From: an uncultured Chloroflexia bacterium
Lineage (GTDB): Bacteria > Chloroflexota > Dehalococcoidia > SZUA-161
Direction of reading: 5' to 3'
NCBI GenBank assembly: GCA_963847595.1
Contig: CAWKAJ010000002.1
Location: 1,597,914-1,661,913 of the forward strand
Length of the DNA stretch: 64,000 nt
Translations under genes and position numbers: made by a program
The notes under the pieces: model-generated
Databases searched by the model: none
What the model was told of the DNA's origin: nothing
The model's input: the letters and a program-made list of their open reading frames with translations, nothing else
Shown here: one piece after another, positions 5,137-25,065 of the stretch
Layout of the letters: every line of letters starts with the position of its first letter
Numbering within the stretch: the stretch's first letter is position 1

Positions 5137-6948
5137 TCAGGGGAGATTGCCCACAGCCGTCGCCGTGTGGTCGGAGTCCATAGTTACTGTTATCGGATTC
5201 TCTCCGGTTGAGTTCCCCACATCAACCTGCCACTGGTCAAAGCTGCACCCTTCGCCTGTCTCTGCAGTGAGCGTAACATTACCGTTTTCAGGAGTGGAAA
5301 ATGCGGTGGTATCACCAGCAGGCACAGTCTGGTTACCGCAGGGCAGGCCTTCTACCAGAATGGGACAGCAGCCGTTAGAGGTCACGGTCAAAGTGTGTGT
5401 GGGATACCCCGCTGTGACATTGCCTGATGGCCAGTCTATGCTGGCGCAGTCCCACCACTCGTGATTTGACAGAGTCTTGTTCCCTTCGAAGACCAATTCA
5501 TCATTAATCCATATCTTTACTGTTGCCGTAGAGAGAAGACCGGTGTCGTGATCCGAATAATAGTAAACTTTGTATTGATAGATGCCGTTAAAAGGCGGAG
5601 CAGCCAGAACTATGTACTCCGGGCCGTAGCCATCTTGGTTATCCACATCTAATGAGGGGTCACCAGTACTATTACCGCCAGACCTATCCCAGTCAGGATT
5701 CGGGTTGGCAAAGTAGCAATCACCGAACGGATCATTCTCAGTATAGCACGGTGCGATGAGGTGGCTATCGAGGTCGGTATTGTTGGTGTCCCAGGTGAGC
5801 TCGGCTTTTATGGCGTATAACTGAATATTCGCATTGACCGTAACTGTATCGTTCCCTGTCTGGCCACTCGCATCGGTGGCAGTCACAGTTATGCTGTTCG
5901 AGCCTGGAATCAGCTCGACCTGGGTGCTGAAGCTATAGTCATAAGTGCTGTTACCCTGAAGGGTCAACGGCAGAGAACGTGTTTCGCCATTAAGGGTAAT
6001 AATCGCCCCAGTTTCACTATTGACCTCATTCGTGCTGGTCACATTACCTGACACTGTGAGCAGCCTGTTATCCGTTGCAGAACCGTCCTCAGGGCTGGTT
6101 ATCTGCACCTGCGGAGCACCACCACCTGGGGTTGGCGTTGGCGTAGGCGTCAGTGTTGGAATAGGAGTCGATGTAGGCGTGGGAATAGATGCTGGCTGGT
6201 AATAATATTGCGGTGGTACATTGGTAGGTGTCGGTGTAGGCGTAGGCGTTGGGGTAGGTGTGGGTATCGGTGTTGGTGTAACACTAGGTGAGGGGTTAGA
6301 GGGTGGGCAACCCACACATGCAGATGATTGCATGCCTGTGCCCACCAATACTGTCACGTTATTGGCTGTAAATCCTACATCACCTTCTTCTGAACTTAAG
6401 GTGGTGTTACCATCTATCCCTACCAGCACCGTGAATATCGTACCTCTAACAACCGCAGAAGCGGCCGGGGTCTCGACCTCGTATTTAGACTCGGAATCTA
6501 CGAGTTTTTGCACGCGGTTGACAGTGTTCCCAACCAGTTGCTTCAATCCGATAGTGGTGGAGCCGGTGCCTGAAAGGCTCATCTCATTGATGAGTATTTC
6601 GGTGTCAGCCTGCACCTCCATAGTGCTGCCTTCAAAGAAGAGGAGCAGGGCAGTACTGTTGCCACCCGTCTTGAGCTGGTCTCCCGCCTCGAGTTTCATA
6701 CCGGCAACGGCTTGTACCCAGGTTGTAGTACCCTGTTTTTGCACCAGCACCTCTCCGCTGAGAGATGAGATAGTGCTGGGAGGGGAACTGGTAGCAGGAG
6801 TAGGAGTAGGAGTGGGAGCAGGGCTAGGAGTAGCTGTCGGTGTCGGAGTGGCTGCTCCCTGTCCACCACAACTGACAAGCGGCACCAGCAGCATTAGTGC
6901 CAGCAGTAAGGCGATATATCTGAAAGCCATTTGGACCTTAGTAGTCAA
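5137..6948 (-). CDS. Secreted lipoprotein with a FecR-like domain, two Pro/Thr-rich linkers, Ig-like middle region and a C-terminal beta-rich domain
   Basis: Lipobox-like LVSCGG after the signal peptide. FecR-like block [37 protein letters not shown]. Linkers (PT)n. Many N-x-S/T sequons. Confidence 0.55.
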   Translation of the reverse strand: MTTKVQMAFRYIALLLALMLLVPLVSCGGQGAATPTPTATPSPAPTPTPTPATSSPPSTISSLSGEVLVQKQGTTTWVQAVAGMKLEAGDQLKTGGNSTALLLFFEGSTMEVQADTEILINEMSLSGTGSTTIGLKQLVGNTVNRVQKLVDSESKYEVETPAASAVVRGTIFTVLVGIDGNTTLSSEEGDVGFTANNVTVLVGTGMQSSACVGCPPSNPSPSVTPTPIPTPTPTPTPTPTPTNVPPQYYYQPASIPTPTSTPIPTLTPTPTPTPGGGAPQVQITSPEDGSATDNRLLTVSGNVTSTNEVNSETGAIITLNGETRSLPLTLQGNSTYDYSFSTQVELIPGSNSITVTATDASGQTGNDTVTVNANIQLYAIKAELTWDTNNTDLDSHLIAPCYTENDPFGDCYFANPNPDWDRSGGNSTGDPSLDVDNQDGYGPEYIVLAAPPFNGIYQYKVYYYSDHDTGLLSTATVKIWINDELVFEGNKTLSNHEWWDCASIDWPSGNVTAGYPTHTLTVTSNGCCPILVEGLPCGNQTVPAGDTTAFSTPENGNVTLTAETGEGCSFDQWQVDVGNSTGENPITVTMDSDHTATAVGNLP

Positions 6949-7248: not shown

Positions 7249-7851
7249 CTAATCAAGGTTCATTACAGCATCAATCCTGGCGGGCAATGTCCGATTCAGG
7301 ATCACGGCTGCACCGGTCACAGGCTTCACCTCAACGGTGAATGTGCTGTAAATGCCGGGACTGGTAGTAAGGTGAGACAGGTCTACCGTAACCACAGCCT
7401 GATCATCCTGCTCCAGCAGGTTACTACCACCGGTGTTCGTGTTCCTGCCTATCCAATTGACAGTCCAGGGCATGTCGGCAACATGCTGGTTGTTGTCGGT
7501 GTAGCTTATTATGGTAACATGGGTGTCATTCCCACCATATGGATTTGGCGACAGGTCAATGGCCTGCCCCTGCAAAGCGTTGGTCAGCGTGAAAGACACC
7601 GCCGTCACGTTCCCGGTGGTGGTGTTACCATAGGCAAACATACTCCCTTTGACCTCCATGGTCGCCCTGGTTTCCGCTATCCCTGCATAGACCGCTTCTT
7701 GGCCCTTCTGGGACGAGAATATGCCTGCCGACAACACTGTGTAGGCGAACACCGATGCCACGACCACGAAGGCAATCAGAATGATCGCCGTCTCCAGGCC
7801 AGTGATGCCTCTCTCATCCCGGCGCAGGTTCTTGTTCAATCCTTTAAGCAT
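7249..7851 (-). CDS. Archaeal-type flagellin (archaellin, FlaB/ArlB-like) with class III (type IV pilin-like) signal peptide
   Basis: N-terminus KNLRRDERG|ITGLETAIILIAFVVVASVFAYTVL is the archaellin signature. Beta-rich C-terminal domain has N-x-T sequons. RBS aggagg upstream. Confidence 0.75.
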   Translation of the reverse strand: MLKGLNKNLRRDERGITGLETAIILIAFVVVASVFAYTVLSAGIFSSQKGQEAVYAGIAETRATMEVKGSMFAYGNTTTGNVTAVSFTLTNALQGQAIDLSPNPYGGNDTHVTIISYTDNNQHVADMPWTVNWIGRNTNTGGSNLLEQDDQAVVTVDLSHLTTSPGIYSTFTVEVKPVTGAAVILNRTLPARIDAVMNLD

Positions 7852-7924: not shown

Positions 7925-8536
7925 TTAGTTCAGTATCGTCCAGGGAGCAAGGGAAGCAGGGGTCGTCCTCTCGATAACGAGCACGCTGCCAATGGGCGGC
8001 TTGATGTCTATATCGAATGTATCATAGGTGCCTATGCCCCCAACCGCTTCCAGGTCTATCGTCATCTGGAAGGTCTGGCCGGGACCGAGTATGCTGTTAC
8101 CAGCCGTCACATTGCCCAGTTGCGTCGCAGTCCAGACCAGGTCGTCAACGCGTTGAGTGCTGTCGGAAAAGGAAACAACCACCACGTTGGAGCTGTTTCC
8201 AGCAGCTAGCCCAGGGGTTGTCGTACTGTTGCCCGGCTCCGTCAGGTCGATGGGCTCGCCATTCAAAGCATTAGCTACGCAGATCACCAGGGATTGAATA
8301 GCCGTGCCGTTAGTCTCCGCAACCACATCGCCCCTCAGTTCCAGCGTGGACCTCGCAGTCTGCAGCCCGGTATAGACTGCCTCCTGGCCCTTCTGAGAAG
8401 CGAATATACCTGCTGACAACACAGTGTAGGCAAATACAGAGGCCACAACCACGAAGGCAATCAGGATGATCGCCGTCTCCAGGCCGGTAATGCCTCTCTC
8501 ATCCCTTCGCATTTTCTTTTCTGGTGTTTTCAACAT
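7925..8536 (-). CDS. Archaeal-type flagellin (archaellin), second tandem paralog. Start set at ATG 8536 behind RBS aaggagg.
   Basis: N-terminal 45 residues are nearly identical to archaellin 1 (MRRDERGITGLETAIILIAFVVVA). Variable domain diverges. Confidence 0.75.
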   Translation of the reverse strand: MLKTPEKKMRRDERGITGLETAIILIAFVVVASVFAYTVLSAGIFASQKGQEAVYTGLQTARSTLELRGDVVAETNGTAIQSLVICVANALNGEPIDLTEPGNSTTTPGLAAGNSSNVVVVSFSDSTQRVDDLVWTATQLGNVTAGNSILGPGQTFQMTIDLEAVGGIGTYDTFDIDIKPPIGSVLVIERTTPASLAPWTILN

Positions 8537-9147
8537 CCTTATCCTCCTTATCGGTTTGATGCACTTGTCAATCAAGCCTGCCGTTGTGTTGCAGGCTATC
8601 CTGAAGCCCTGAGTCAAGTTTTGACCATCCGCATCACCTCCTCCGACCTTGACCTTTTACTGCCGATATGTCCTTTCGCTGTGACTTCCCAATTGCATAG
8701 GGCTCTCAAACAAGTATCGGTAGCAATCCTATCAACTGATTAGCTTTTGCACAATCACCGCACAGTACCGTAATAAAAAGTTATATAGTAATGCCTTGAA
8801 GGTAGTACTACCTTACCGAGCAGTTCCCCAAAGAGGGCTAGGTACGCGTTCGAATCAGGTGAACCCGTGAGGGGAAAAAGAAGCCCCGGGGCTGGCTTTA
8901 ACGCCTTATTCCTCGGGGCACCGGTCAAGGCCAGAGGGTCTCGGAAACAAACGACTCTGAAGCGGCCTACTCTCCAGAGCGACATCGATATTTTGCTTCA
9001 GGTCCTGGCTAATAGCAATATTACAAGCGTACTTTTATGCGGCAAACTTCTGTAAGTTTGGTTAACGGCATTGCTCAGCGTTTCAGGACTGAGGGCTTGG
9101 GGGAGGGCGGTTGTGTGGATATTGAGTGACTAGTGCTATCCGGAATG

Positions 9148-10155
9148 CTAGCTGCTCACGCTGAAATAGACTGTTATTGAATCTGTTTCTCCGGAGAGAA
9201 CATCCTGGAATGCCAGATCAGCTTTGTATTGTCCCACGGGAGCGCCCGGCAGCAGGTCTATGTACAAGGCGCCCCAGAGATAGTTGGGGACTGTGTCCAG
9301 TTGCGTTCGGTGAAAGTCAACCGGACTCGTCCCGCTCATGTAAAGCTGCCCATCGGGGCCATATACTTTAACATCGGTTACTCTGTACCAGACTTCGTAT
9401 GTACCGTTAGAAGCGTTCCATGAAAGGTCTGACGCCTCAAAGTAAATCCAGGCCCTCTCCCCCGGGGCAAAAATGGCATCAGGCCTAATCGTATAGTCTC
9501 TGTCTCCGCGCACATCTGAGCATATTTTGACGTTACCTATTTGAAAAGCAGAGGGCGTTGAAGGAGTGCCTCCTGGAGTGGCGCCGGACCACTCCCCTGC
9601 GTTCACTGTCACTGTTGCCCCTTGGGCGGTGAACCAGACAGTACCCTCATCACAATGGATAATGGTGAAGCCATTAACGCCGACATAGGAGTTAAAAGCA
9701 GTCCCCCGCACCACAGCCGAGCCTGCCGGTGTGTCCACTTCATAGCTGGACCCTGAATTGACAAGTTTTTGCACGCGGTTGACAGTATTACCTACAAACT
9801 GCTTCAAATGGATGGAGGTTGAACCCGTGTGAGGGTCAAGAGCCAGCTCATTTAGAAGGATCTCAGAATCGGCCCCGACTTCTACTACGCTTCCTTCAAA
9901 GAAAACAATTTCAGCTGTACTGTTCCCACCGGTTTTGAGGCTGTCACCCTCAAAGACTTTCATGCCGGAAACGGCTTGAATCCAGGTGGTGGAGCCCTGC
10001 TTCTGTACCAGTACCTCTCCGACAGGGGATGATATGGTGCCAGCAGCCGTAGCAGTTGCTTTGTGATTTCCCAATAACACCAACACCAGTGCAACTATGA
10101 TGGCTACCGCCAGTAAAGAGCCCGTCGATATTAAGAGCTTTCGGTGCTTACGCAT
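9148..10155 (-). CDS. Membrane-anchored FecR-like domain protein, paralog of the N-terminal half of 5137..6948
   Basis: N-terminal TM helix, then [45 protein letters not shown], collinear with the 603-aa protein. Confidence 0.55.
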
Positions 10156-10197
10156 TAACTTACCCCCTCGCTCGATATGGTTTGCACAAGAAGACTA

Positions 10198-11214
10198 TCA
10201 ATCCGGTCTACGTCTCCTAAACCACCCAAGGATCAGGAAAACAAACAAAGCCACAAATAACATTCCGCCTATTATCTCGCCTACCATGGCCCAGGGAACC
10301 GCAGCGGCTCCGGGTGCTGGGGTCGGGGCAGGTGTCGGACTCGCTGTCGGCGTTGGTGCAGGCGTAGGCGTTGGTGCTGGCGTGGGCGTTGGGGTAGGCG
10401 TCGCCGTTGGCATGGGTAGCGGTAAATATCCACCACTACCTATCCCGCCTATAATGCCCCAGGTGACCGCGAGTTCCCCCCCTGCAGGGATCGGAGTCGG
10501 CGCAGGCGTTGCTGCCGGCGTAGGCGTTGGTGCCGGCGTGGGCGTTGGTGCTGGCGTGGGCGTTGGTGCCGGCGTGGGTATGGGCGCAAGGCCTAGCGTC
10601 TGTCCCTCCGAGGTCAACTGGACGACTACGATGGTTACAGTCAGGGTATAACTCTGGCCCTGGGGCACTATTTGTCCGGGTTCGGTGCCAACGCCTATGG
10701 ACAGGGCGCCAACCACCTCTTGACCAGCATCTATAGTCTGGTTCAGGTCTATTCCACTAAGTGTGGCAGTCAGCACCGATGTATCAGGGTTCTGAATATC
10801 TATGGACTGGACAATGCCGGGAGTATTCTCTTGATTGCTCAGTCCGAAGAAAACAGTCGGATAGTAGCCAGGATAGGCATTGCTAAGAGTAATGCTAATG
10901 GTGTCCGCGTTCTCGTCGATTGAGGCGGTCGTTGCTGCCACGTTACCGCTAAACCTTCCACAGGCGACACCTGGTGTCTGTGCCTGATAAGGGTCGTTAC
11001 CATTATCGCCGAGGTCAATTCCACTGGGATATTCAGCCGACGTTCCGATGTGGTTGTTATCATTTGATTCCACCCAGGAGAAGGTGCAGAGGCTATTACC
11101 GCCCGGATCAGGGCTGCCGTTGGCATAGGTGATGCCGATAGCTCCCAGTGCTATCAGTGACACTATCAGGACTAACAACGCCAGCCCTAACTTGTCTCTT
11201 TTTTCCGTTATCAT
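10198..11214 (-). CDS. Secreted TasA-like protein with SipW-cognate-type signal peptide, two (PT/PA)n linkers and a C-terminal TM anchor with RRRRPD tail
   Basis: N-terminus [24 protein letters not shown] resembles the TasA signal (LGLALVGGGTWAAF). Core motif [17 protein letters not shown] is shared with the next two genes. Confidence 0.5.
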
Positions 11215-11261
11215 TACTCTATCCTATCCGCCAGCAGCGGGCTCGTTAACCAGATTCCCCA

Positions 11262-12137
11262 TTATGGTACAGCCGTAACGGTATAAGTAATCGTTACCAC
11301 ATAATTTTGGATGCAATCCTGATGGAAAGTGATTGAACCAAATACCTCCTGGCCAGGAGTAACGGTGGCCTGGCTAGCAAAGATACCACCAAGAGTGATC
11401 TTCAAGTCATCAGAGTATGGCGTATAGGAACAGTTGACAGTTACCTTAAGATTGACGCTTCCAGTGTTCTTAATAGTGCAACCAACCGAACTGTAATATC
11501 CTTCATAGGGATTTGTCAGAGTGACAGTCAACTGCTGCGTCCCTGCGCCAGTCACAGTAGTCTGAGCGTCATTGCTGTGACTCCTTGTTCCACTCCAATT
11601 CGAGGATGTTAAGGTGCCGCCGGTCCAGTTCCAGGTGCCCGCTGATGACGGGTCAAGGCTATTATCATGAGTACCGTCGTCATTCGTCACTGCCTGCTGG
11701 CACTGTGCCTGAGGGGTAGTGAACGTTTGATCTTGACCGTACACCGTAAAGAATCCCACTCCTTTGGCTCGGAAGTGATATTTAGTACCGCTTTGTAAAT
11801 TGCTCAGGGCAGCCGTAAAGGCTTTTGGAACGGCTCCGTTCCAAGATGATGGATTCCCTGCCACAGTACCGAGATTATAAATGGGATAATGAGCAGCATC
11901 ACCATATTCAAAGGATACGGTAACACCGCTATTGCCAGGACCCAGGCTATTCAGACTCCCATTAAGAGTAGCTGAAGTAGCGGTTACACTGCTTGCAACA
12001 TTAGTGGTCACTCCTGGGGCTGCGGCAATAGACACAGTCGCTGAAATATGCAAGGGCTGTGACCACCTGGCGTAGCTCACGCCCAGTATTCCCATAGCCA
12101 ACAATAAGACCAGGCAAATCAAGCCCAGTTTCTTCAT
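11262..12137 (-). CDS. Secreted TasA-like protein with SipW-cognate-type signal peptide (paralog)
   Basis: MKKLGLICLVLLLAMGILGVSYARWSQ. Motif TNPYEGYYSSVGCTIKN. Thr/Gly/Ser-rich, beta-rich. Confidence 0.5.
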   Translation of the reverse strand: MKKLGLICLVLLLAMGILGVSYARWSQPLHISATVSIAAAPGVTTNVASSVTATSATLNGSLNSLGPGNSGVTVSFEYGDAAHYPIYNLGTVAGNPSSWNGAVPKAFTAALSNLQSGTKYHFRAKGVGFFTVYGQDQTFTTPQAQCQQAVTNDDGTHDNSLDPSSAGTWNWTGGTLTSSNWSGTRSHSNDAQTTVTGAGTQQLTVTLTNPYEGYYSSVGCTIKNTGSVNLKVTVNCSYTPYSDDLKITLGGIFASQATVTPGQEVFGSITFHQDCIQNYVVTITYTVTAVP

Positions 12138-12194
12138 CTGTTTTCCCTTGTTGCCTTAATTACCATTCGGTCTTTAATCTCCACGGCTAATCTG

Positions 12195-12285
12195 CTTTAA
12201 GGGGGTGGGGTTACCAAACCCCGCGCCCTTAAAAGAAACTAACCCTGGCGGGGGTGGGGTGAAAACCCCACCCCCTACAAAACCA
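12195..12285 (-). terminator. GC-rich tandem hairpins between TasA-like paralogs (terminator or attenuator)
   Basis: On the minus strand: gggggtggggttttcaccccaccccc and ggggtttggtaaccccacccc. Confidence 0.3.
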
Positions 12286-12293
12286 ATCTTAAT

Positions 12294-12914
12294 TTACTGG
12301 TTCTGGCTAGCAGTAACGGTGAATGTAACTGTATAGCTTCCACCCGTTTTCGGCGGGTCTGATGAGGCTCCACCGTTGGTGCCAACACCGATAGTGATTG
12401 TGCCGACAGCAGACGCGCCAACGGCAATAGGAACGGGTCCGGCGGCTAGAGAACCGGTGACCGCTACAGCGAGGTCTGTCGTGGCTCCGCCACCTGAATT
12501 AACCTGCGTCTGCGGCCCACTTGCAACAACCTTTATTGGGACACTGCCGGTATTCGCAACCTGGACGGCAACTGACCCAAAATAGCCGGGATAGGCATTG
12601 TTGATGGTGACAGTCAGAGTGTCACCAGTGACCGTGGTGGTCGTTATGGCGACCGTTGTGTTCCCTACATTTGTGCTTGCCCTCGTCCCGCTGTCCCAGA
12701 CACCACCGCTCCATGAGCCTGCACTACTTGGGTCAAGGATATTACCAGGAGTACCGTCGTCATTGGATACTGCCGACGCGAACTTCGCGCCGAATGTTCC
12801 GGTGTTGACGTTAGCCGTAACATTCAACGACTGGCTCCACGCGGCGTAGCCCACGCCCAGCGCGCCCAGCGCCAGGACTACCACCAGGACTATGAGACCA
12901 ACTTTTTTGTTCAT
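12294..12914 (-). CDS. Secreted TasA-like protein with SipW-cognate-type signal peptide (paralog, 206 aa)
   Basis: MNKKVGLIVLVVVLALGALGVGYAAWSQ. Motif NNAYPGYFGSVAVQVAN. Confidence 0.5.
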   Translation of the reverse strand: MNKKVGLIVLVVVLALGALGVGYAAWSQSLNVTANVNTGTFGAKFASAVSNDDGTPGNILDPSSAGSWSGGVWDSGTRASTNVGNTTVAITTTTVTGDTLTVTINNAYPGYFGSVAVQVANTGSVPIKVVASGPQTQVNSGGGATTDLAVAVTGSLAAGPVPIAVGASAVGTITIGVGTNGGASSDPPKTGGSYTVTFTVTASQNQ

Positions 12915-13793
12915 TTTGTTTCCTCTCCTGTTTTATCTTCGTTTTTTGTCTCTGGATATATTCCCGTTTTTGTTTCTAATTTTTGGTTTCACCCTCCGAT
13001 GCCGACTCATGGGGGCCCCCTTCCACCGATGCTGTGGAAGACCGACCAGGGCTCGCTAGCACCGTGCTCCAAGCCAGGTGTTTTTATCTCCAGAACTAAC
13101 TTCTCATCACCCATAGGAATCATCCCTTTCTCAACTCAGGAATATTTCACGTGGAGAAATCCCTTTTACAAAAGAAAGACCGACCTAAGAAGGTCGGTTT
13201 CACCATTCGCTCGCCGCTGCTTAGGTGACCAAATACAAGCAACGGTTCCCTGCCACCTGTTAATTGCGAGGACGATATGCAGTTTTGGGGTCGTTTGGGG
13301 ACGAATCGACCCGCCAAAATGCAAGCCCCCAGATCTAGTTGCTATCGATATTAAGCTGCTCACCTCCTGCCGCGTAGCGCCTGCTTCCCTGAGGTTCCTC
13401 TGCCGCTCAGCCAGTGATGCCTCTGGGATGGCCTTGTACTAGTGCACAGGCCAGAGATAATTCGGAGCTGAATTCAATCCTCCTTGGTGTAATGCTTCAG
13501 CCATTGCCCCAACAGGTCTCTGGCATTGGAGCAACACAAATACCATGCCCTTTAGTATAGAATATCCTTGGGGAATTAATTACTCGGATATCCCCCCCTT
13601 TTTTGGCAAAAAACACCCCATTTATTGTCATGCATAATCGTCATGCTCTCCGCAAGTAATTTTGCGCCTTCACTCAATGTATGCCCTGAAAAATATAGCA
13701 GGGAAACCTTCGAGGACTGGCGTGTCAAACCCGAACTTTACGACTAGCGGAGAAGAGGCAAGAGCAGTTTCGCACAGTTGACGGTATGGACAC

Positions 13794-13882
13794 CACGGAT
13801 CTCAGCAGACGGATGTCACATATCTGTAATAAGCATAATCGGAACGTGCTCGATGTCGCTAAATCTCCGAAACAAATACAAA
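13794..13882. repeat. About 90-bp direct repeat, copy 1 (copy 2 at 17225..17315)
   Basis: ccacggatctcagcag..acatatctgtaataagcataatcggaacgtgctcgatgtcgctaaatctccgaaacaaatacaaa matches 17225..17315 with few mismatches. Confidence 0.5.
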
Positions 13883-13934
13883 TGCATGTAGGTATTACTG
13901 CTGACCGTCACAGTTAGTGGAATAGGCCTGGACC

Positions 13935-14133
13935 AGATTATGCATGTCTGCCAAGGAGGCCGTCGGCGCCCTGTCAATACGCGTCGGTACCAAACCTGGA
14001 CAAATAGTGCCCCAGGGCAATAGTTATACTGCGAGTGTAACCATCGTAGTCATCCAGTGTACCCAAAGCGGACACACGCTAGTCGTCGGTGCCACCTCCC
14101 TGCCCGCCCCGGCTATTACCTGACAGCTCGAAC
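13935..14133 (+). pseudogene. Inverted C-terminal fragment of a TasA-like gene (paralog of 10198..11214)
   Basis: Translates to [34 protein letters not shown], versus [34 protein letters not shown] in the 338-aa protein. No N-terminal part. No ORF called in the tract. Confidence 0.5.
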
Positions 14134-14385
14134 GGTGCTATGGCCGGCACACTGACCAAGAGCGGCAGCTATAACCTCACTGTCCAAGTGAAGATAGCGC
14201 TGGCGGCAGGGCGATAGCGAACCTCTCAATTAAGACCAATTAGGCCGCATTCGCGGTTGATTCTATCTCGCAAAATGGTATAATAAACGAACAGAACTGT
14301 CGCCTGAAAAAATTCTCACGAAGCGTATTGATTTCGCCTTCTCTCTTGACGTATTTTGCCCCCTCATCTTAAACTGTTCTAGCCA

Positions 14386-15573
14386 TTGCAAGAGTTCGTG
14401 GTGGAGCTTATATATATGAGCAGCGCTATCACTTGCGGCTTGGTTGGTGCAATTTACGTCGTCATAAACGTTTTACTCCCCCATATCGCCATTGACACAC
14501 TCATCAAGGCTTATGTATTCCAGCCGTTGCTGTGGGGACTCCTTATCCTGGCCATCCGTTTACTGCCGGGCTACAGGCCACTGGCGAAAATCAAGGCTAG
14601 GGGCACGTTCATCCAGGTGGCCCTAGGGATTGCTTTCGTAGAGGTACTCCTTAATGTCATTAGCGGACTGTTTTCTAGCTTCGGCAAGAACCCGGCGTCC
14701 CTCACCACGTTGGGCATCACTGAGAACCTGTTTTTTGTGGGCTCAATGCTGGTCGCCATGGAGCTGAGCCGGGCATCGCTGGTCACGCGCCTGGGAAAGC
14801 GGCACAGCTTTCTAGCGTTGGCTTTTGTGACTCTGCTCTATACTTTTATTGCCATCCCATTAAGCCAGATTACCAGCTTCAAGCTGCAAATTGGATCAAC
14901 CAACTTGGTGATTTCCACCTGGTTGCCCCTACTGGCGGAGAGCTTGCTGGCGTCATTTCTCGCCTTCATAGCCGGAGCGCGCGCCTCGCTGGCTTACCGC
15001 AGCCTGTTGGCAGCTTTCTGGTGGTTCTGTCCTATCCTCCCTAACGCGACCTGGGCGCTCAAAGGACTTATCGGCGTCGTCGTGCCAATCGTGGGGATAG
15101 TAGTTGTAAGCAGGTTTTATTCGGCACAAGCCAATCGAGGCAAAGCTAGGCGGCGGGCAAGCAAAGCTTCCTTCCCTGCTGGTTGGATTACTGTCATGCT
15201 GGTAGCTGTGGTAATCGTCTGGTTCTCGGTGGGAGTTTTTCCGTTTCAGCCATGGGTCGTGGGCAGCGGCAGCATGACTCCCGTGCTGCGGACCGGCGAC
15301 GTTGTCATTGTCGATAAGGTGTCGGCGGATGCCATCAAGGTGGGTGATATTGTCGAGTACCGGGAAGCTGGACACAGTGACATAGTTCACCGAGTAATAA
15401 GCATTGAGCAGACAGGACAAGCGAAATCGTTCATAACCAAGGGTGACGCCAACACTCTGCCCGATGCAAACCCGGTCATGGCGGCAAATGTGATAGGGAA
15501 GGTTGTGTTCACTATACCTAAGGTTGGCTGGATTGCTCTTGGCATAAAGAAGCTATTGACAACGAGGACATGA
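14386..15573 (+). CDS. Signal peptidase I of the SipW/ER type (S26 family), fused to an N-terminal polytopic membrane domain of about 290 aa
   Basis: C-terminal GSGSMTPVLRTGDVVIVDKV..DIVHRV..TKGDAN has Ser and His catalytic motifs. The N-terminal region is very hydrophobic with multiple TM helices. Confidence 0.6.
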   Translation: MQEFVVELIYMSSAITCGLVGAIYVVINVLLPHIAIDTLIKAYVFQPLLWGLLILAIRLLPGYRPLAKIKARGTFIQVALGIAFVEVLLNVISGLFSSFGKNPASLTTLGITENLFFVGSMLVAMELSRASLVTRLGKRHSFLALAFVTLLYTFIAIPLSQITSFKLQIGSTNLVISTWLPLLAESLLASFLAFIAGARASLAYRSLLAAFWWFCPILPNATWALKGLIGVVVPIVGIVVVSRFYSAQANRGKARRRASKASFPAGWITVMLVAVVIVWFSVGVFPFQPWVVGSGSMTPVLRTGDVVIVDKVSADAIKVGDIVEYREAGHSDIVHRVISIEQTGQAKSFITKGDANTLPDANPVMAANVIGKVVFTIPKVGWIALGIKKLLTTRT

Positions 15574-17153
15574 GTGGTAGACTTAAACCTAAAACGATTG
15601 CTTCAGGTAATAAAGGAGGCCCAACTCCAGTGAGAAGGTACCTTCTTCTTGTGGTCAGCGCAGTCCTGCTATTTGTGTCACTAGCTGGCGTACTGGCTAC
15701 GAACGGCATACCCACCCAGATAAAGAAAGAGGCGGCGCTGGTCAATTATGAGCATGAAGGCACATTTGATTATCTGATACACTTAAAGCCCTCTGCGCTG
15801 TACGGTTCTGCGCCTACGTCATCATACCCGGCAGCGATTGTTGGCTCGCTTGATTTCACCTTCAGCTATAACCCGGTGGAGAGCGTACCAGAGTCGGCTT
15901 CAGTAGATGCCATCCTGGAAAATCCGGGCATCTGGCAAAAGAAGATTGTACTGGTGCCAGAAACGACTACCACGGGGAATTTCACTTGTAGTTTTTCCCT
16001 CGACATAGACCAGATTATAAAGCTATTTGACGATACTGAGAGTGAGCTCAACATTCCTTCTTCGGAGCGCTACTTATCTATCGAGGCTGATGTTACAAAT
16101 TCGAGTGGGGTCTTTACCCAAAGCCTGCCCATCACGCTAACCGATACAGTGATTGACGTGAGCAACGGCCTGAGCTACAGGCAGTTTTCGGGAACTGGCA
16201 GCTTCCAATATATTGTGAACCTGAAGCCAAACTCGACCTTCGATACCTCAACCCTCGAGCCGCCACAAGCCGCAGATAATGCATCCCCCACTCTTGGGCC
16301 GGGACAGACAGTGTTCTCCCAGCTTGTTGATGGCATGGATGCGTCCTTCCAATATGCGTTTAACGCCGATAAGCCCGTTGCGAATGTGACCACGGATACA
16401 CAGATAACAGCCAGCATAGACGTACCCAACTTCTGGTCGAGAACGTTCCCTGTGCTGAGCGTCAGTAAGGGCGGGAATTTCACCATCGATTTTCCTATCG
16501 ACCTGGCCGGTTATCTGAACTTGCTTGACGCCTTTAATGCTGAGACAGGCGTAGCATCTGCTTCCTCGGAGGTAGCTGTTGACGCTCAGGTCCATACCGT
16601 TGGGCAAAGCCAGTTCGGCCCGATAGATGAGACATACAGCCAAGAGATGAAGGGTACGATAACAGGAGGTGTCATCGAGTGGCAGACGGAATTGACCAAG
16701 ACCCAGACCGGTGCCACACAACAGGTCACGCTGGTTAGCAATGCCAGCAAATATTTGGGGCTTTCCGTCAATAGGGCAAAGACTCTGACCAGGGCTCTGA
16801 CAGCAATATTCCTTCTCTTCCTTGTGGTCTCCTTAATACTGTATTTTAGATCCAGACGTGCGCTGCGCCCCCCCATAAATATGGAAGCGTTGCAAATCCA
16901 GAAAAAGTACAGGCAGAGGATTGCTGAAGCGACAAGTCAAACGCCGTCAGAAAACGGGGCTCTGATAAATTTGGGCTCTATGGAAAGCCTGATCAGCGTA
17001 GCCGATGAGCTGGGCAAACCGATAATCCACCAGGCACCAGGCACTCCTGAAGGACGACACGCTTACTATATATTGGATGGAACAATACGATACCAGTACC
17101 TGCCCTCTAGCGGCATTCTGGAACAGAACAACGATATGGAAGAGACTGGGTAG
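15570..17153 (+). CDS. Bitopic membrane protein with a large extracytoplasmic domain containing an internal duplication, translationally coupled to the signal peptidase
   Basis: Shares an atga start/stop overlap with the upstream gene. TM helices sit near both ends. Internal repeat: EGTFDYLIHLKPSALY versus TGSFQYIVNLKPNSTF. Confidence 0.45.
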   Translation: MSGRLKPKTIASGNKGGPTPVRRYLLLVVSAVLLFVSLAGVLATNGIPTQIKKEAALVNYEHEGTFDYLIHLKPSALYGSAPTSSYPAAIVGSLDFTFSYNPVESVPESASVDAILENPGIWQKKIVLVPETTTTGNFTCSFSLDIDQIIKLFDDTESELNIPSSERYLSIEADVTNSSGVFTQSLPITLTDTVIDVSNGLSYRQFSGTGSFQYIVNLKPNSTFDTSTLEPPQAADNASPTLGPGQTVFSQLVDGMDASFQYAFNADKPVANVTTDTQITASIDVPNFWSRTFPVLSVSKGGNFTIDFPIDLAGYLNLLDAFNAETGVASASSEVAVDAQVHTVGQSQFGPIDETYSQEMKGTITGGVIEWQTELTKTQTGATQQVTLVSNASKYLGLSVNRAKTLTRALTAIFLLFLVVSLILYFRSRRALRPPINMEALQIQKKYRQRIAEATSQTPSENGALINLGSMESLISVADELGKPIIHQAPGTPEGRHAYYILDGTIRYQYLPSSGILEQNNDMEETG

Positions 17154-17224: not shown

Positions 17225-17315
17225 CCACGGATCTTAGCAGGCAAAGGTTACATATCTGTAATAAGCATGATCGGAACGTACTAGATATCGCTGAATTCCC
17301 GAAACAAATACGAAC
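17225..17315. repeat. About 90-bp direct repeat, copy 2
   Basis: Matches 13794..13882. It overlaps the 3' end of the vWA-like reading frame. Confidence 0.5.
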
Positions 17316-17970
17316 TCGTTGGGGTTGCCGTCGGAGGCGAAGATGACTAAATCAGGGTGGTCTGGACGATTATTGGGCCCTGCCAAGTAATTGTATGCTG
17401 CGAGCAGTCCTTGCTCCCAGTTAGTAGATTGAGTGCCTGGTAATCTCGTTGCATCAATCGTTGTCTTAATCAAAGCCGCATTATTGGTGAAATCCAAACC
17501 AGGATGGGCAATGGTGCCGAAGTCCACCAGCGCGAACTCGGTAGGCGTGCCGGGGAGAAGGGCATCAACAAAACCATTGAACGCCGTCCGCATCTGATTG
17601 AGCTCGGCGTCGGAGTAGGCACTCTGTTTGCTACCGTCACAGTAATAGTGTCGATGTCATGCCAATCGTTAACGTTGCCCCTATATTGTGATCTTATACC
17701 ATACTGACCATCGGGCACGGTGGTCGTATCCCAGGGCACAGCATGAGGGCTTTGGCCTTGTCCCCCAACTGTTGTCCACGAACCACTGCTATCAAGTCTG
17801 TACTGGAATCGTTGGGTATTGTGAAGCGAGCCTTCGCTAATCTGTATAGTCCCGCTTACGGTAGCTCCATTGGTTGGCTGAGTAATATTTGCCGTGGCTG
17901 GCCCTGCAAGTGATAGCGCGGCCGTGGTCAATGCGACAAATAACCCAGGGATGCTGAAATTTAATCCCAT
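17234..17970 (-). pseudogene. Probable frameshifted secreted Ig-like plus vWA-domain gene
   Basis: The signal peptide and Ig-like module (ITQPTNGATVSGTIQI) run in one frame. The vWA-like C-terminus (DLVIFASDGNPN) lies in another frame from about 17600. Stops sit upstream of the second frame. Confidence 0.35.
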
Positions 17971-21075: not shown

Positions 21076-22704
21076 TCAAAAGAGGTCCTTGATATCTTTC
21101 TCGGCCTTCCTCTTTAGCTCCGCGGCATCCCTGAAGCCGAACTCTCTGTAGGACTCGGCTGAGCCGTATTCCCGGGTCTTGACCACCACAGGCATGGGCA
21201 ACGCATGGCCAAAGATTAGCGCCTGCTGCCTGGCCTCCAGCTTGGCCAGCACCGTCTTAAGCTCGCTCTTCCCTGAGGCCCCCATGAGCACGCTGTCTAT
21301 ATCCTTCTCGTTGTCCAGAAGATAGACAACCTTGGTGCCGAGCTGGGACATCACCTCGTCGTCTATGCCGCTGGGACGCTGGTCTATAACCAGCAGGGTA
21401 ACGTTGTACTTCCTCATCTCGCGCGCGATTTTGCCAAAAATGGTCTGCTCTGCCACCTGGGGGTTGAGGAATTTATGGGCTTCCTCGATGGTAATCACCA
21501 GAGGATAGGGTTCGGCTTTCTCGTCTCCCCGGGCAGCTTCCTTACGTTCTCTATACTTATCGTAAATGCGGCGGGTGAGTATGTTGGCCACCAGCACATA
21601 AGCTGTCAAGTCATCATATCTGCCGAATTCGAGCACTACATTGATGCCGCGGTCGAGGTATTCCAGTATGCGCTGCACCGAGTTCTCGCGAGCGTGGGGC
21701 ACCAGGAAATGCAGCCTGCTCAATTTCGCCAGACCACGGCGCAAATTGCGGTAGCTGCTCTCGTGCACGCTCAGCTTGTCCAGCAGGTCTTTGGTATCGG
21801 CGGCCTCGTCCAGCTTCAAGAAGGTATCCAGCCAGCGTTTTTCGCCGAAGTGGCGCGAGAACTGGTACACTGCCTCTACCGCCGGTTGGGTCAGGTTCAG
21901 CGTCTCCCTGAGCAGTTCGATGTCCTCGGGCTCTATCTCGTCGGAGCCAATCTCAACTATGTAGTCGGCGCTGAGTCCACGGCGGCGAGCGCTGTCCTCG
22001 TCCAAGGTGAAAACGGCTACCTTCGAAGGGAATAGCTGCTTCAGCCCCTTCACAAATCTTTTCTCCTCGCTTTGGACCTGCCAGCCATACTCGTTGTGCA
22101 TGTCGAAGATTAGGTTGGCTGCTGCTTTCTTCTGCACCATGCCGATGAGTAACAGCCTGGTGAAGAAGGTCTTGCCTGTGCCGCTTTTGCCAAAGACGCC
22201 GTTGGAGCGTTTCACGAACTCGGGTATGTCGAGGCAGACCTTGGTCTCCATGTCCAGCGGCGTGCCCACATAGAAATGTTTTTCGTCTTCCTGCCCGAAA
22301 ACCCTCTCGATATCTGCTTCCGATGCCTCGCGCACCAAGGAGAAGTGGGCGGGCACCGTCTTCACCGGCTGCGGGCCTTCGAGTATGCTCATGGCGTCGC
22401 CGCTGAGGGTGAGCCTGAGCCCCACATGGATTACACCGTAAGTGCCAGTGCCGGCGATGACCTCGGCGATGAAGGGGTCGGAGACATCGGGCGGCGTGAT
22501 GGTGAGCTGCTGGTTGGTGGCGCCCAGAGTCACGTCGGAAATCATGCCGAAGAAGCGGCATTTCTGTCCCTCGATGACCACGTAGCGACCCACCGCCATC
22601 TCCTCGATGGGCGTGGCGCTATCCAGTTTGACATCAATACCTTCGGTCAGCGAGCCGCCGACCACTATACCCAGACGTTTTCCCTGAGGTGTTGCCTCGT
22701 TCAC
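21076..22704 (-). CDS. herA: HerA-family (DUF87, FtsK/HerA superfamily) ATPase/helicase
   Basis: N-terminal HAS-barrel-like region. Walker A GKSGTGKT. HerA-typical LIFDMHNEYG and Walker B VITIEEAHKF. Confidence 0.65.
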   Translation of the reverse strand: MNEATPQGKRLGIVVGGSLTEGIDVKLDSATPIEEMAVGRYVVIEGQKCRFFGMISDVTLGATNQQLTITPPDVSDPFIAEVIAGTGTYGVIHVGLRLTLSGDAMSILEGPQPVKTVPAHFSLVREASEADIERVFGQEDEKHFYVGTPLDMETKVCLDIPEFVKRSNGVFGKSGTGKTFFTRLLLIGMVQKKAAANLIFDMHNEYGWQVQSEEKRFVKGLKQLFPSKVAVFTLDEDSARRRGLSADYIVEIGSDEIEPEDIELLRETLNLTQPAVEAVYQFSRHFGEKRWLDTFLKLDEAADTKDLLDKLSVHESSYRNLRRGLAKLSRLHFLVPHARENSVQRILEYLDRGINVVLEFGRYDDLTAYVLVANILTRRIYDKYRERKEAARGDEKAEPYPLVITIEEAHKFLNPQVAEQTIFGKIAREMRKYNVTLLVIDQRPSGIDDEVMSQLGTKVVYLLDNEKDIDSVLMGASGKSELKTVLAKLEARQQALIFGHALPMPVVVKTREYGSAESYREFGFRDAAELKRKAEKDIKDLF

Positions 22705-23294
22705 GCTCTAATCCTCCTCAGGATGGCATTGAGCCGATTGAGGTCGCCGCTCAGCAGAACAGCGATTTCCTTGCCTGCTTTTACCAGGAAGGCGCGCCTG
22801 TCGTCCTGGGCGCAGCTCGCCTGCCGCAGGCAGGCGGAAACTATCTCGTCCACCGTCCCTGTTCGGGTATTGAGCAATATGGGCAGGAAATCAAGCGATT
22901 GAGTGAAGCCGCGTACCTCGTCCTTTTCGCAGAGATAGACGAAGCTGTGGACGCGGGGTGGGCGGGGCGGCAGGTAATGCAGGGGCACAGCGCGCTGTGC
23001 CCCTACGCTGTGTCCGATGACAAGAGTATCGAATGTGGTGCGTAGCAGCTTGGAAAGCTGCGGATTTTGACGATAAATACTCTCCTCGGTGGCTTCCTCC
23101 CTGCCCCGCGCTATGGGACGGCGGTTTGGCTCTATGCTCTCCGTGGCGGCGTTGCAGACCACGCCGTAAATCTCTACATCGCCGTCGCTGGTCTTAACCA
23201 GGCTGCCCAGGGGTGGGGGGGAGTGCAATTCATAGCATTCTGCCACGAACTGCCCTGTGCTGGCCTCGATGACCTCGCCTATCTTGTCTGGCAA
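22701..23294 (-). CDS. Hypothetical protein with HAS-barrel-like N-terminus (IGEVIEASTGQF..VKTSDGDVEIYGVV), overlapping the herA start
   Basis: ORF with a 4-nt overlap to herA. No other motifs recognised. Confidence 0.35.
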   Translation of the reverse strand: MPDKIGEVIEASTGQFVAECYELHSPPPLGSLVKTSDGDVEIYGVVCNAATESIEPNRRPIARGREEATEESIYRQNPQLSKLLRTTFDTLVIGHSVGAQRAVPLHYLPPRPPRVHSFVYLCEKDEVRGFTQSLDFLPILLNTRTGTVDEIVSACLRQASCAQDDRRAFLVKAGKEIAVLLSGDLNRLNAILRRIRA

Positions 23295-23866
23295 ATCAGT
23301 TCTCCTCGCGGTTTGAGTTCATTCATCTGCCTGTCCGGATTATTTTCGTCCACATTCCATTTTACAGGGTTGTCAAGGGTGTATTGGCGGATATCGTTCA
23401 AATCATGTTCGTTGCGGATGACGTGTTCATAGTAATTGCGCTGCCATCTAAAATCGAGATGTCCAGCGCGGCGACAGCGGGTTGTCACTGCGGCTTTATA
23501 GGTACGCATAATTATGGCCAGCTTATTTCGCTGTGGGGAGATGGTAGAAAATCGGTTGTTGGTAATACGGATTGTAGGGGCGTTCAATTGAACGCCCCTA
23601 CGGAGGGCAATGAAGACGATTCCGTGTAAATGATTTGGCATGATAATCCATTCATCCAATTGAACATTTGGAAAATGGTTGGGAATTTCTATCCAACATT
23701 GTTCTGCAATGGCACGGATTTTCTTCTTTTCGAACAGTAACGCCTTATTATGTGTGCAAATGGTCACAAAATACGCCCCTTCCTGGGAATAGTCGTAATC
23801 CTCTAAACGGAGGGAATGGCGCTGGCGCTGTTCTATGTCGGGTGCCAATTTTGACCTCAAATCCAC
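23279..23866 (-). mobile_element. REP-associated tyrosine transposase (RAYT / TnpA_REP, IS200-like Y1 HUH enzyme). Non-ATG start (GTG 23866 or TTG 23849).
   Basis: DYDYSQEGAYFVTICT N-terminus. HuH motif MPNHLHGIV. Catalytic Tyr motif WQRNYYEHVIRNE. Confidence 0.7.
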
Positions 23867-25065
23867 CTCGTCTTCTTGCTGCGGCTTTTGGCAGAGGTGG
23901 CGGTGGGCAGGCGCCTTTCGGACAGGGCCAGTTCGACCAAATATTGGAACTGTTCGCGGTCGGCGCCGGTTACCACTGCCTGCTCGTGCGCCTCGCTCAA
24001 AGCCACCGGATAGCCCTGGCCGCGGCGGCACTGGTCGAGGACTAGCGTGTGAACCAAATCAACCAGCCCCCGCTCCTCAACCCATCGTGGGAACTCGACT
24101 CGCCCTATCTCTTCATCGCCCTTCAAGTAGAAGAAGCGGACCTCATTTTCTCCGTAATGCTTCTGCACCACCGAGGAACGGCTGATGAATGTCGCCGACC
24201 TCTCGCCCGGCTCAAGGATTCGGGCGAAGATGGCGCTGTCCTGTACGCCATCAACCGCTTCACACACCTTTTTCGATGAGGGCACGCTGCGGGAACAGTT
24301 GCGGTCGCAGTCGGGCGGGTCGTAAGGACATACCGCTACCCTGAGTGCGTTCACCACATCGGTACTCCGGGGGAAGCTGATGTAGCTTGCCAGAGCCAGC
24401 CTGGTTTTCTGGCCAGTCTCCTTGATTTTGTTCACAGCCCGAAGGAATCCGTTCTCCAGCAGTTCTCTCTTTACGTAGTCCGGGTAAGCCTGCCCCGCTA
24501 GCCCCCACATGATGAGCGAGCCGTCGATCAAGGCTAGCGCCGGCAATTGGGGAGGAAGCCCCTCGCATAGCTCTGCCAGAGCTTCAATCTCGGCTACAGC
24601 GCGTTTTATGCCCAGCAGATCCCGCTCCAGAGCTTGTTCGCCGCTGCCCAACGGGTCGGCTATGGTCAAGTCTTGGCGGCTGGCGTAGAGGGCGGGCTGG
24701 CTGCGGAGTGCAGCATCAGGCTTCTGGCCGTAGCGCAACACCACGCTGCCGATGTTTATCAGGCAACACCTCGCTGCGCTATGTCGGTCGACATCTATAT
24801 GGGAGCCGTCTACAGCGATGACTGCGAAGTCGGATGGGCATTCTCCGGATTTGTGGCTGCCTGTGAGCTCATTAGTTAGCCCGGCCACTAACCAGGTGGT
24901 CTTGCTGCTCTCGATCCTCTTTTTGAGCGGGTCAAGCGCGGTAGATTTCAGGCGCAGTGTCTCCAGGGCGTGGACGAGGTGGGCTTCTTTGTCCTTCTGC
25001 TCTGCTTTGAGGTCTGCAGCCATGCCTTCGATCTGGGCTGCTACTTTGTTGAGGTCTAATGACAT
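23857..25065 (-). CDS. nurA: NurA-family 5'-3' nuclease
   Basis: AVDGSH and LIDGSL motifs. Length and position next to herA. Confidence 0.6.
   Translation of the reverse strand: MSLDLNKVAAQIEGMAADLKAEQKDKEAHLVHALETLRLKSTALDPLKKRIESSKTTWLVAGLTNELTGSHKSGECPSDFAVIAVDGSHIDVDRHSAARCCLINIGSVVLRYGQKPDAALRSQPALYASRQDLTIADPLGSGEQALERDLLGIKRAVAEIEALAELCEGLPPQLPALALIDGSLIMWGLAGQAYPDYVKRELLENGFLRAVNKIKETGQKTRLALASYISFPRSTDVVNALRVAVCPYDPPDCDRNCSRSVPSSKKVCEAVDGVQDSAIFARILEPGERSATFISRSSVVQKHYGENEVRFFYLKGDEEIGRVEFPRWVEERGLVDLVHTLVLDQCRRGQGYPVALSEAHEQAVVTGADREQFQYLVELALSERRLPTATSAKSRSKKTRWI

Follow-up and report, generated by a model that had tools for sequence, protein, structure and literature searches.

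What kind of surface structure is encoded by three paralogous genes for secreted proteins that lie, in a bacterial genome, a few kilobases from archaellin genes, and what governs its expression? The question is raised by a stretch of 64,000 nucleotides (nt) from an uncultured Chloroflexia bacterium (GTDB lineage Bacteria; Chloroflexota; Dehalococcoidia; SZUA-161; GenBank assembly GCA_963847595.1, contig CAWKAJ010000002.1, positions 1,597,914 to 1,661,913 of the forward strand), referred to below as the window, within which all coordinates are given. A first-pass annotation, made from the letters of the DNA, had proposed that the three proteins, here designated A, B and C, belong to a TasA-like fibre system that was as yet uncharacterised. 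We conclude that the locus is probably a fibre cluster switched by cyclic diguanylate (c-di-GMP); within the TasA superfamily it is best placed in the AbpX-like branch, as an acid-poor variant with a membrane anchor. The core of the earlier reading is essentially right, on evidence other than that of the tests it had put forward; the locus type, however, has already been described. A preprint of January 2026 (10.64898/2026.01.04.697558) reports AbpX-clade loci, with homologues in Bacillota and Chloroflexota, that combine a dedicated signal peptidase I of ten transmembrane (TM) segments and its accessory subunit DUF5305 with minor subunits and anchors, and that have c-di-GMP enzymes encoded nearby. 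The presence of an AbpX-like clade in Chloroflexota was thus already known; what is new here is a c-di-GMP-II riboswitch with an anti-terminator layout.

TasA-type fibres are among the main protein scaffolds of biofilms. Description of the AbpX branch is very recent, studies have been confined to an archaeal member, and the window offers a concrete bacterial example.

Three paralogous secreted proteins related to AbpX

The three open reading frames (ORFs), all on the minus strand, were found where they had been placed: A (12294-12914; 206 residues), B (11262-12137; 291 residues) and C (10198-11214; 338 residues). Their paralogy was borne out by BLASTP, the cores of A and B sharing 39% identity (E=5e-19), A and the core of C 31% (E=1e-13), and the signal peptides plus first mature residues of A and B 62% (E=3e-6). 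A consists of a signal peptide (residues 1-24), a putative donor strand (about 25-40) and a beta-sandwich core (43-204), with cleavage predicted between GVGYA and AWSQ. B has a signal peptide and donor strand as in A (VSYA followed by RWSQPLHISATV) and, N-terminal to its core, an insert of about 107 residues (about 36-143) whose Fn3-type matches are all sub-threshold (7cg8, E=0.018; Pur_ac_phosph_N, 0.005; fn3, 0.1). In C a signal peptide (ITYA followed by NGS) and core (43-200) are succeeded by two Pro/Thr (PT) linkers with a WGIIGG-containing motif between them, and the chain ends in a TM helix (modelled at 308-334) with the tail RRRRPD, so that the two PT/PA linkers, C-terminal helix and basic tail already noticed in this largest protein are all present.

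Other features remarked on in the first-pass annotation were equally apparent: the core motif N-(A/P)-Y-(P/E)-G-Y-(Y/F) occurs in all three proteins (NAYPGYF in A, NPYEGYY in B, NAYPGYY in C), and Thr, Ser and Gly together make up 31-42% of the mature sequences. Its common N-terminal motif ending in Y-A-x-W-S describes A (YAAWS) and B (YARWS) but not C, in which the signal region reads YANGS and then PDPGG. The designation of the proteins as donor-strand subunits must be divided in the same way: A and B have a Trp-led strand at this position, and C is without one.

Homology to a known fibre protein emerged at the level of the family. A collection of 5.8 billion proteins yielded 79 relatives of A, of which 73 were aligned (A first; all at E<1e-3 to A); the family comprises 5,868 representative clusters at E<=1e-3. 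A profile of the 73 members matched AbpX of Pyrodictium abyssi (9sj2, E=1.7e-19; 9rhp, 8e-14) and, more weakly, the TasA chains 8aur and 5of1 (about 1.5e-4), which supports the fibre reading and places it closer to AbpX than to TasA. In the profile alignment residue Q1 of mature AbpX pairs with A25, and the AbpX donor strand (W2-I12) pairs with the Trp-led amphipathic strand of A and B. Trp occupies mature position 2 (W26 in A, W25 in B) in 72 of the 73 members, the sole exception being C, for which hmmalign sets G33 at the W2 position and P35 at the E4 position. When A, B and C were searched singly, AbpX was the best non-repeat PDB match for each, always at the NAYPG...N.G..P motif, with E values of 0.07-0.23 that are not significant. 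The AlphaFold2 model of A (predicted local distance difference test score, pLDDT, 87.6) comprises the signal helix, an unstructured segment of about 16 residues at the place of the AbpX donor strand, and nine beta strands; that of C shows coil at 32-42, a core with pLDDT of about 90, disordered linkers and the TM helix. On the strength of this comparison, A and B would polymerise by means of an N-terminal donor strand.

Established signal-peptide and family models are of little help here. Matches to TIGR04088 (the SipW-cognate signal) and to camelysin profiles had been expected, and their thresholds were missed by all three proteins. The N-terminus of A aligned with positions 4-34 of the 34 in TIGR04088 at 13.9 bits, against a cutoff of 19, and no match was obtained for B or C; the same model weakly matched 41 of the 73 relatives (E<=0.1; best 3.5e-5). 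Camelysin PF12389 scored 11 bits on A, against a threshold of 22.5 (E=0.38), and the Pfam scan gave nothing for it in B or C. The TasA model NF046066 matched none of the three, and in NCBIfam and Pfam scans of A, B and C no model rose above threshold. Among the 73 relatives, camelysin had weak matches in 14 and the TasA model in four.

Acid-poor subunits and a candidate anchor

Proteins of the AbpX clade are described as typically aromatic at position 2 and acidic at position 4, with an Asp/Glu content of about 15%, and the Ca2+ ligands of AbpX are E4, D18, D46, D48, E52 and E142 (10.64898/2026.01.04.697558). The window locus resembles that of AbpX in the Trp at mature position 2 leading an amphipathic strand, in the NAYPG...N.G..P motif, and in the accompanying genes, which encode a dedicated multi-TM signal peptidase I, DUF5305 and additional subunits of the minor and anchor types. 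A and B differ from AbpX in being acid-poor, Asp and Glu accounting for only 3.8% of mature A and 4.9% of mature B as against about 15%, and in having Gln in place of Glu4 (Q28 and Q27); the value for C is 6.8%. Ligands were compared through the family hidden Markov model alignment with AbpX residues 1-147 rebuilt from the printed profile alignment, which made five ligand positions alignable: one of the five is retained in A (D98), none in B and three in C (E49, D100 and D104). In the family at large, 38 members have Asp at position 4 and 22 have Gln; judged by these sequences, the acid-poor type is a common sub-variant and no oddity. Because A and B are without most of the AbpX Ca2+ ligands, their polymerisation is probably not calcium-triggered, and it is doubtful that they assemble in response to calcium as AbpX does. 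An Asp/Gly/Asn-rich loop (C residues 66-75; IDPGDNGNDP, in the window copy DLGDNGNDP) is common to C-like subunits and missing from A and B; by its sequence it resembles a calcium-binding loop, for which it is a candidate.

A is likely to be the bulk subunit, since it is the minimal one and is encoded by the first gene past the riboswitch described below. B is probably a minor, decorated subunit with an Fn3-like extra domain. C looks like an acceptor-only, membrane-anchored terminal subunit at the cell-proximal end of the fibre: having a groove-bearing core without a donor strand it could stand at only one end of a donor-strand polymer, and its membrane helix would make that end the cell-proximal one, with new subunits therefore added distally. 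The closest relative of C (P0215; 77% identity) keeps this architecture throughout, from the two linkers and the motif between them to the TM helix and an Arg-rich tail; in two related loci (L009 and L010) the C-like protein likewise ends in a TM helix and basic tail. C-like proteins are the last among the subunit genes, with C-terminal modules that vary (TM anchor, He_PIG, DUF11/DUF7507, or none). A TM helix carried on PT linkers sets the window anchor apart from the bacterial AbpX-like anchors reported so far, which use SLH or LPXTG. We infer these subunit roles, along with the polarity of the fibre, the cleavage site and polymerisation itself.

Two further assignments within C were considered and set aside. 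The WGIIGG motif between its PT linkers was tried as a cis donor strand on its own core and is disordered in the AlphaFold2 model (pLDDT <50), although a monomer model leaves action of the motif in trans possible. A BLASTP alignment equated FSWVES of C with AWSQS of A; this was rejected and FSWVES taken as the first core strand, because an SNDDG motif is common to A, B and C-like relatives and both structural models place a strand at 43-50.

A signal peptidase and DUF5305 pair near the subunit genes

A SipW-type peptidase had been noted some 1.5 kb from the fibre genes. It proved to be a signal peptidase I of the archaeal/endoplasmic reticulum (ER)/SipW type (14386-15573, plus strand; 395 residues) that matches TIGR02228 (E=1e-29) and, over residues 269-383, the SipW model NF046067 (E=1e-20), and that starts 1.47 kb from A on the opposite strand. 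Its catalytic domain (269-383), with the motifs GSGS296M, H335RV and GD354AN, follows a long multi-TM N-terminal extension; by Kyte-Doolittle analysis there are about eight hydrophobic segments, some seven before the domain and one after it, so that the number of helices is approximate. The next gene (15570-17153, plus strand), the start of which overlaps the peptidase stop codon by 4 nt, encodes a DUF5305 protein (PF17231, E=5.8e-26; TM segments at 25-43 and 406-424), a putative accessory subunit of the peptidase.

This association recurs. Among 13 other loci the peptidase lies beside AbpX-like paralogues in 11, its orthologues matching at E=1e-64 to 1e-129, and DUF5305 is also found in nine (L003-L007, L009, L012 and L013 being included); the contigs of the other four end first or hold subunit genes only. 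Fuller loci, from reference genomes and metagenomes, follow one order on a single strand: two to five AbpX-like paralogues, a C-like subunit with a deviant N-terminus, the peptidase and DUF5305. In L012 the peptidase pair stands ahead of the subunit genes. The window departs from the common order, and from the AbpX locus, in that the peptidase pair lies in inverse orientation to A-B-C. Immediately ahead of the peptidase gene, at 13947-14120 on the plus strand, we detected the relic of a C-like gene: 58 codons with 60% identity to C residues 163-220 (tblastn E=2e-16), with stop codons closing all other frames and the sequence upstream. Its place fits the ancestral order of C-like gene, peptidase and DUF5305 seen in relatives, and indicates that an inversion or inverted duplication parted the A-B-C operon from the peptidase-DUF5305 pair.

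Like the TasA-SipW-TapA system of Bacillus subtilis (5of1, 8aur), the locus thus combines secreted subunits bearing a SipW-type signal peptide with an adjacent ER/archaeal-type peptidase. It differs in that its proteins are not recognised at threshold by the curated TasA and camelysin models and fall well short of TasA in size, in having no TapA homologue, and in the large multi-TM extension and DUF5305 partner of its peptidase; donor-strand assembly, moreover, has been demonstrated for TasA and is proposed by comparison for the window proteins. AbpA of Pyrobaculum calidifontis (7ueg), which the literature assigns to the same superfamily, offers a further parallel: it assembles by donor strand, and a signal peptidase I is encoded close by. 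TasA expression in B. subtilis is regulated by the SinR/SinI pathway, whereas regulation in the window is apparently by riboswitch.

A c-di-GMP-II riboswitch heading the operon

The A-B-C operon is headed by a c-di-GMP-II aptamer (RF01786; 13183-13265, minus strand), about 270 nt upstream of the A start codon. This is the sole RNA element that Rfam recognises in the window, one passed over in the first-pass annotation, and it matches the model over its full length with 57.4 bits, above the gathering score of 53.5 (E=1e-11). It overlaps an intrinsic-terminator-like hairpin (13169-13198, minus strand; hairpin proper 13198-13179) of the form ACCGACCU-UCUU-AGGUCGGU followed by CUUUCUUUUG, which is the best such site within 9000-14500 and is present in the minimum free energy and centroid folds alike. 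The 5' arm and loop of the terminator sit within the aptamer 3' (P1) strand, and the same overlap is found in six copies (the window, L002, L006, L008, L009 and L014). Because the two structures share this strand, the ligand-bound fold and the terminator would be mutually exclusive, and c-di-GMP is therefore predicted to promote read-through; in ligand response as well as direction, the element reads as an ON switch.

Comparison of homologues indicates that the RNA fold is maintained. Across five aptamer copies 95% of cells pair, as against 30-46% in slid controls; compensatory changes occur at 11 pairs, two of them in the pseudoknot, and all four helices are kept. The clade version carries GAAACCGACC in place of the Rfam consensus GCAACCGGCC. 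Counting the window, the riboswitch occurs at seven of 14 AbpX-like loci, upstream of AbpX-like genes and on the same strand: six were detected with Rfam (the window, L002, L006, L008, L009 and L014) and one, in L005, with our own covariance model. Neither Rfam nor our own model found a riboswitch in L012, the locus of the closest homologue, or in L013, and one riboswitch-negative locus has just 429 nt of upstream sequence. The L005 copy (5464-5546) falls below the Rfam gathering score but is given 62.8 bits by the clade model; with mutations in its conserved core (ACGGAACCUAUC) and without a clear terminator, it may be decaying.

The downstream partner also varies. In the window, L002 and L014 the riboswitch is followed at once by the first subunit gene, and in L008 a small ORF intervenes. 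In L005 (5566-6816), L006 (5608-7084) and L009 (2819-4460), all three from Dehalococcoidia, it directly precedes a conserved pair of genes, for an OmpR-type response regulator and a single-domain receiver, that heads the cluster, an arrangement suggestive of a cascade from riboswitch to regulator in place of direct control. The closest described counterpart is the type IV pilin gene pilA1 of Clostridioides difficile, where, according to a review, ligand binding to a c-di-GMP-II switch promotes transcription. Both cases set the same riboswitch class before a surface-filament gene, and the window copy shows a matching aptamer-terminator overlap; they differ in the Chloroflexota host, in the filament (a donor-strand fibre versus a type IV pilus), and in the control of response-regulator genes by the riboswitch in some relatives.

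It could be argued that the window element switches expression off, is in decay, or affects a leader transcript only, in which case c-di-GMP would not induce the fibre genes. The direction of switching has been deduced from sequence overlap, a leader of about 265 nt separates the terminator from the start of A, the L005 copy has mutated core positions and no clear terminator, and half of the related loci have no such element. Yet the aptamer is full-length, above gathering and supported by compensatory changes, with all four helices kept; the terminator 5' arm is formed by the invariant GAAACCGACC of the ligand-bound fold in all six overlapping copies, as expected of a ligand-stabilised anti-terminator; and the type II switch of pilA1 is also activating. 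We therefore regard this alternative as unlikely and retain the ON switch as the preferred interpretation.

As a control, metagenomes were scanned for the clade-specific aptamer core (GAAACCGACC), giving 80 loci (L015-L094) with at least 56 confident riboswitches. Among the matches listed, 36 copies had at least 1 kb of downstream sequence; three of these precede AbpX-like genes and three the regulator pair. Most of the remaining copies, again among the matches listed, lie before unrelated ORFs whose N-termini look like signal peptides (29 of 44, judged crudely by hydrophobicity). The notion that the riboswitch is specific to AbpX-like operons was accordingly rejected; the distribution suggests that this variant controls a wider set of secreted proteins, with AbpX-like operons as one recurrent target. 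Two same-strand copies each were seen in L033 (500-582 and 1549-1632) and L058 (3381-3464 and 3914-3996). Our literature search returned no report tying c-di-GMP riboswitches to TasA, SipW, signal peptidase, AbpX loci or Chloroflexi, and riboswitches go unmentioned in the AbpX preprint (10.64898/2026.01.04.697558). On the strand opposite to the riboswitch and leader runs an ORF of 147 codons (12999-13442, plus strand); lacking a family annotation and overlapping a conserved RNA element, it is in all likelihood spurious.

Proposed assembly of the fibre

Taken together, these features suggest the following sequence of events. At high c-di-GMP the ligand would be bound at the aptamer (13265-13183), and the bound fold, by locking the P1 strand and pseudoknot, would block formation of the terminator hairpin (13198-13179) and allow transcription into A, B and C. 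The three proteins would be exported by Sec and cut after the conserved Tyr-Ala by the multi-TM signal peptidase I together with DUF5305, freeing an amphipathic Trp-led strand on A and B. Each freed strand could then enter the open beta-sandwich groove of the next subunit (donor-strand complementation), yielding a chaperone-free polymer composed mostly of A, with B as a minor subunit contributing its extra domain. C would accept a strand without donating one, cap the cell-proximal end and, through its TM helix on Pro/Thr linkers, tether the fibre to the membrane.

A fuller interpretation, which we offer tentatively, is that c-di-GMP gates a TasA-superfamily fibre directly via a type II riboswitch, that the fibre is a calcium-independent, membrane-tethered AbpX variant with its polarity set by an acceptor-only anchor, and that the whole possibly belongs to a motile-to-sessile switch. 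The last element is suggested by the archaellin genes 2-4 kb away, which could make this a motile-to-sessile switch in a bacterium with an archaeal motor. If this interpretation is true, it would be the first link at the RNA level between c-di-GMP and donor-strand fibres. Subunits without calcium ligands may polymerise calcium-free, which bears on the hydrogel uses proposed for AbpX, and an acceptor-only anchored subunit could reveal how the fibre is fastened and at which of its ends it grows. Sediments, sludge granules and subsurface biofilms are rich in Chloroflexota, which are genetically intractable; an RNA that acts in cis and lends itself to assay in vitro would provide a practical entry to their surface biology.

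Alternatives to a donor-strand fibre

The most serious challenge to polymerisation is that A, B and C, with their SipW-type signal peptide and beta-sandwich fold in common, might act as monomers at the cell surface, whether secreted or tethered to the membrane (as adhesins or envelope components, for instance), and form no fibre. Fold searches returned matches to generic beta-sandwich and adhesin-like domains only, most of the AbpX Ca2+ ligands are missing from A and B, the riboswitch variant is mostly found ahead of secreted proteins that are not AbpX-like, and for the Chloroflexota members the fibre reading rests on sequence comparison. Against monomers stand a Trp-led strand that is kept in 72 of 73 members and aligns with the experimentally defined AbpX donor strand, and a dedicated peptidase conserved beside the paralogues. 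The multi-paralogue operons, in which the last subunit has a deviant N-terminus and anchor or Ig modules, suggest in addition the logic of a heteropolymer. We consider purely monomeric proteins improbable, and a fibre built by donor-strand exchange remains our favoured explanation.

A different filament can be envisaged if the N-terminal Lys-x-Gly is a class III signal for a prepilin peptidase and the hydrophobic stretch is kept as the pilin helix of a type IV pilin-like subunit. The N-termini (KKVG/LIVLVVV, KKLG/LICLV and DKLG/LALLV) do resemble Lys/Arg-Gly with a hydrophobic stretch after it, and true class III archaellins lie 2-4 kb away; but TIGR02537, the model for N-terminal pilin/archaellin regions, matches both of those archaellins (E of about 1e-8) and none of A, B or C. 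In its solved structure AbpX starts only beyond the hydrophobic region, with the residue that pairs with A25, and recombinant AbpX starting at this mature N-terminus forms fibrils with the N-terminus as donor strand (10.64898/2026.01.04.697558). Residues -3 and -1 (G/S/T and A) fit signal peptidase I, which, rather than a prepilin peptidase, is also what the conserved neighbour encodes. Pilin-like processing is accordingly very improbable, and cleavage by signal peptidase I to release a donor strand is preferred.

Hardly credible at all is the idea that these proteins are camelysin-type metalloproteases or precursors of ribosomally synthesised peptides, for although a related Pfam family is named Peptidase_M73, 14 of the 73 relatives match it weakly and several carry the JGI label 'predicted ribosomally synthesized peptide with SipW-like signal peptide', no HExxH occurs in A, B or C and A is without any histidine, the proteins are modelled by AlphaFold2 as folded beta-sandwiches of 180-300 residues, and the label is merely the product name of a signal-peptide model.

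Archaellins and other neighbouring genes

The archaellin genes reported near the fibre cluster were identified as two PF01917 genes on the minus strand (7249-7851, E=5e-21; 7925-8617, E=2e-26), both with class III signal peptides; the archaellum motor genes ArlI, ArlJ and ArlH were not encountered among the other window ORFs scanned. The window also encodes FtsH, RadA/Sms, MnmE, Der and GpsA, and the best named relatives of RadA are from Dehalococcoidia metagenome-assembled genomes (about 82% identity). The host being bacterial, the archaellins therefore represent a case of the horizontally acquired archaella described in Chloroflexota (PMC12488501).

Two minus-strand genes encode FecR-domain (PF04773) surface proteins resembling LipL45/Lsa33. 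One (9148-10155) starts 42 nt past the end of C and may share a transcript with A-B-C. The other (5137-6948) has long PT linkers together with Glucodextran_B and InlB B-repeat-like domains. Loci L002-L011 yielded no FecR homologue. Beyond the DUF5305 gene, at 17234-17970 on the minus strand, two overlapping ORFs in different frames, encoding a signal peptide with an Ig-like N-terminal part and a VWA fragment (PF00092, E=4e-5), look like a single surface-protein gene split by a frameshift or by a sequencing error. Farther along, at 21076-25065 on the minus strand, a single gene run encodes a HerA-type helicase (DUF87 and HAS barrel) and a NurA nuclease. The HerA-NurA pair, which processes DNA ends, is typical of archaea and is also present in some bacteria.

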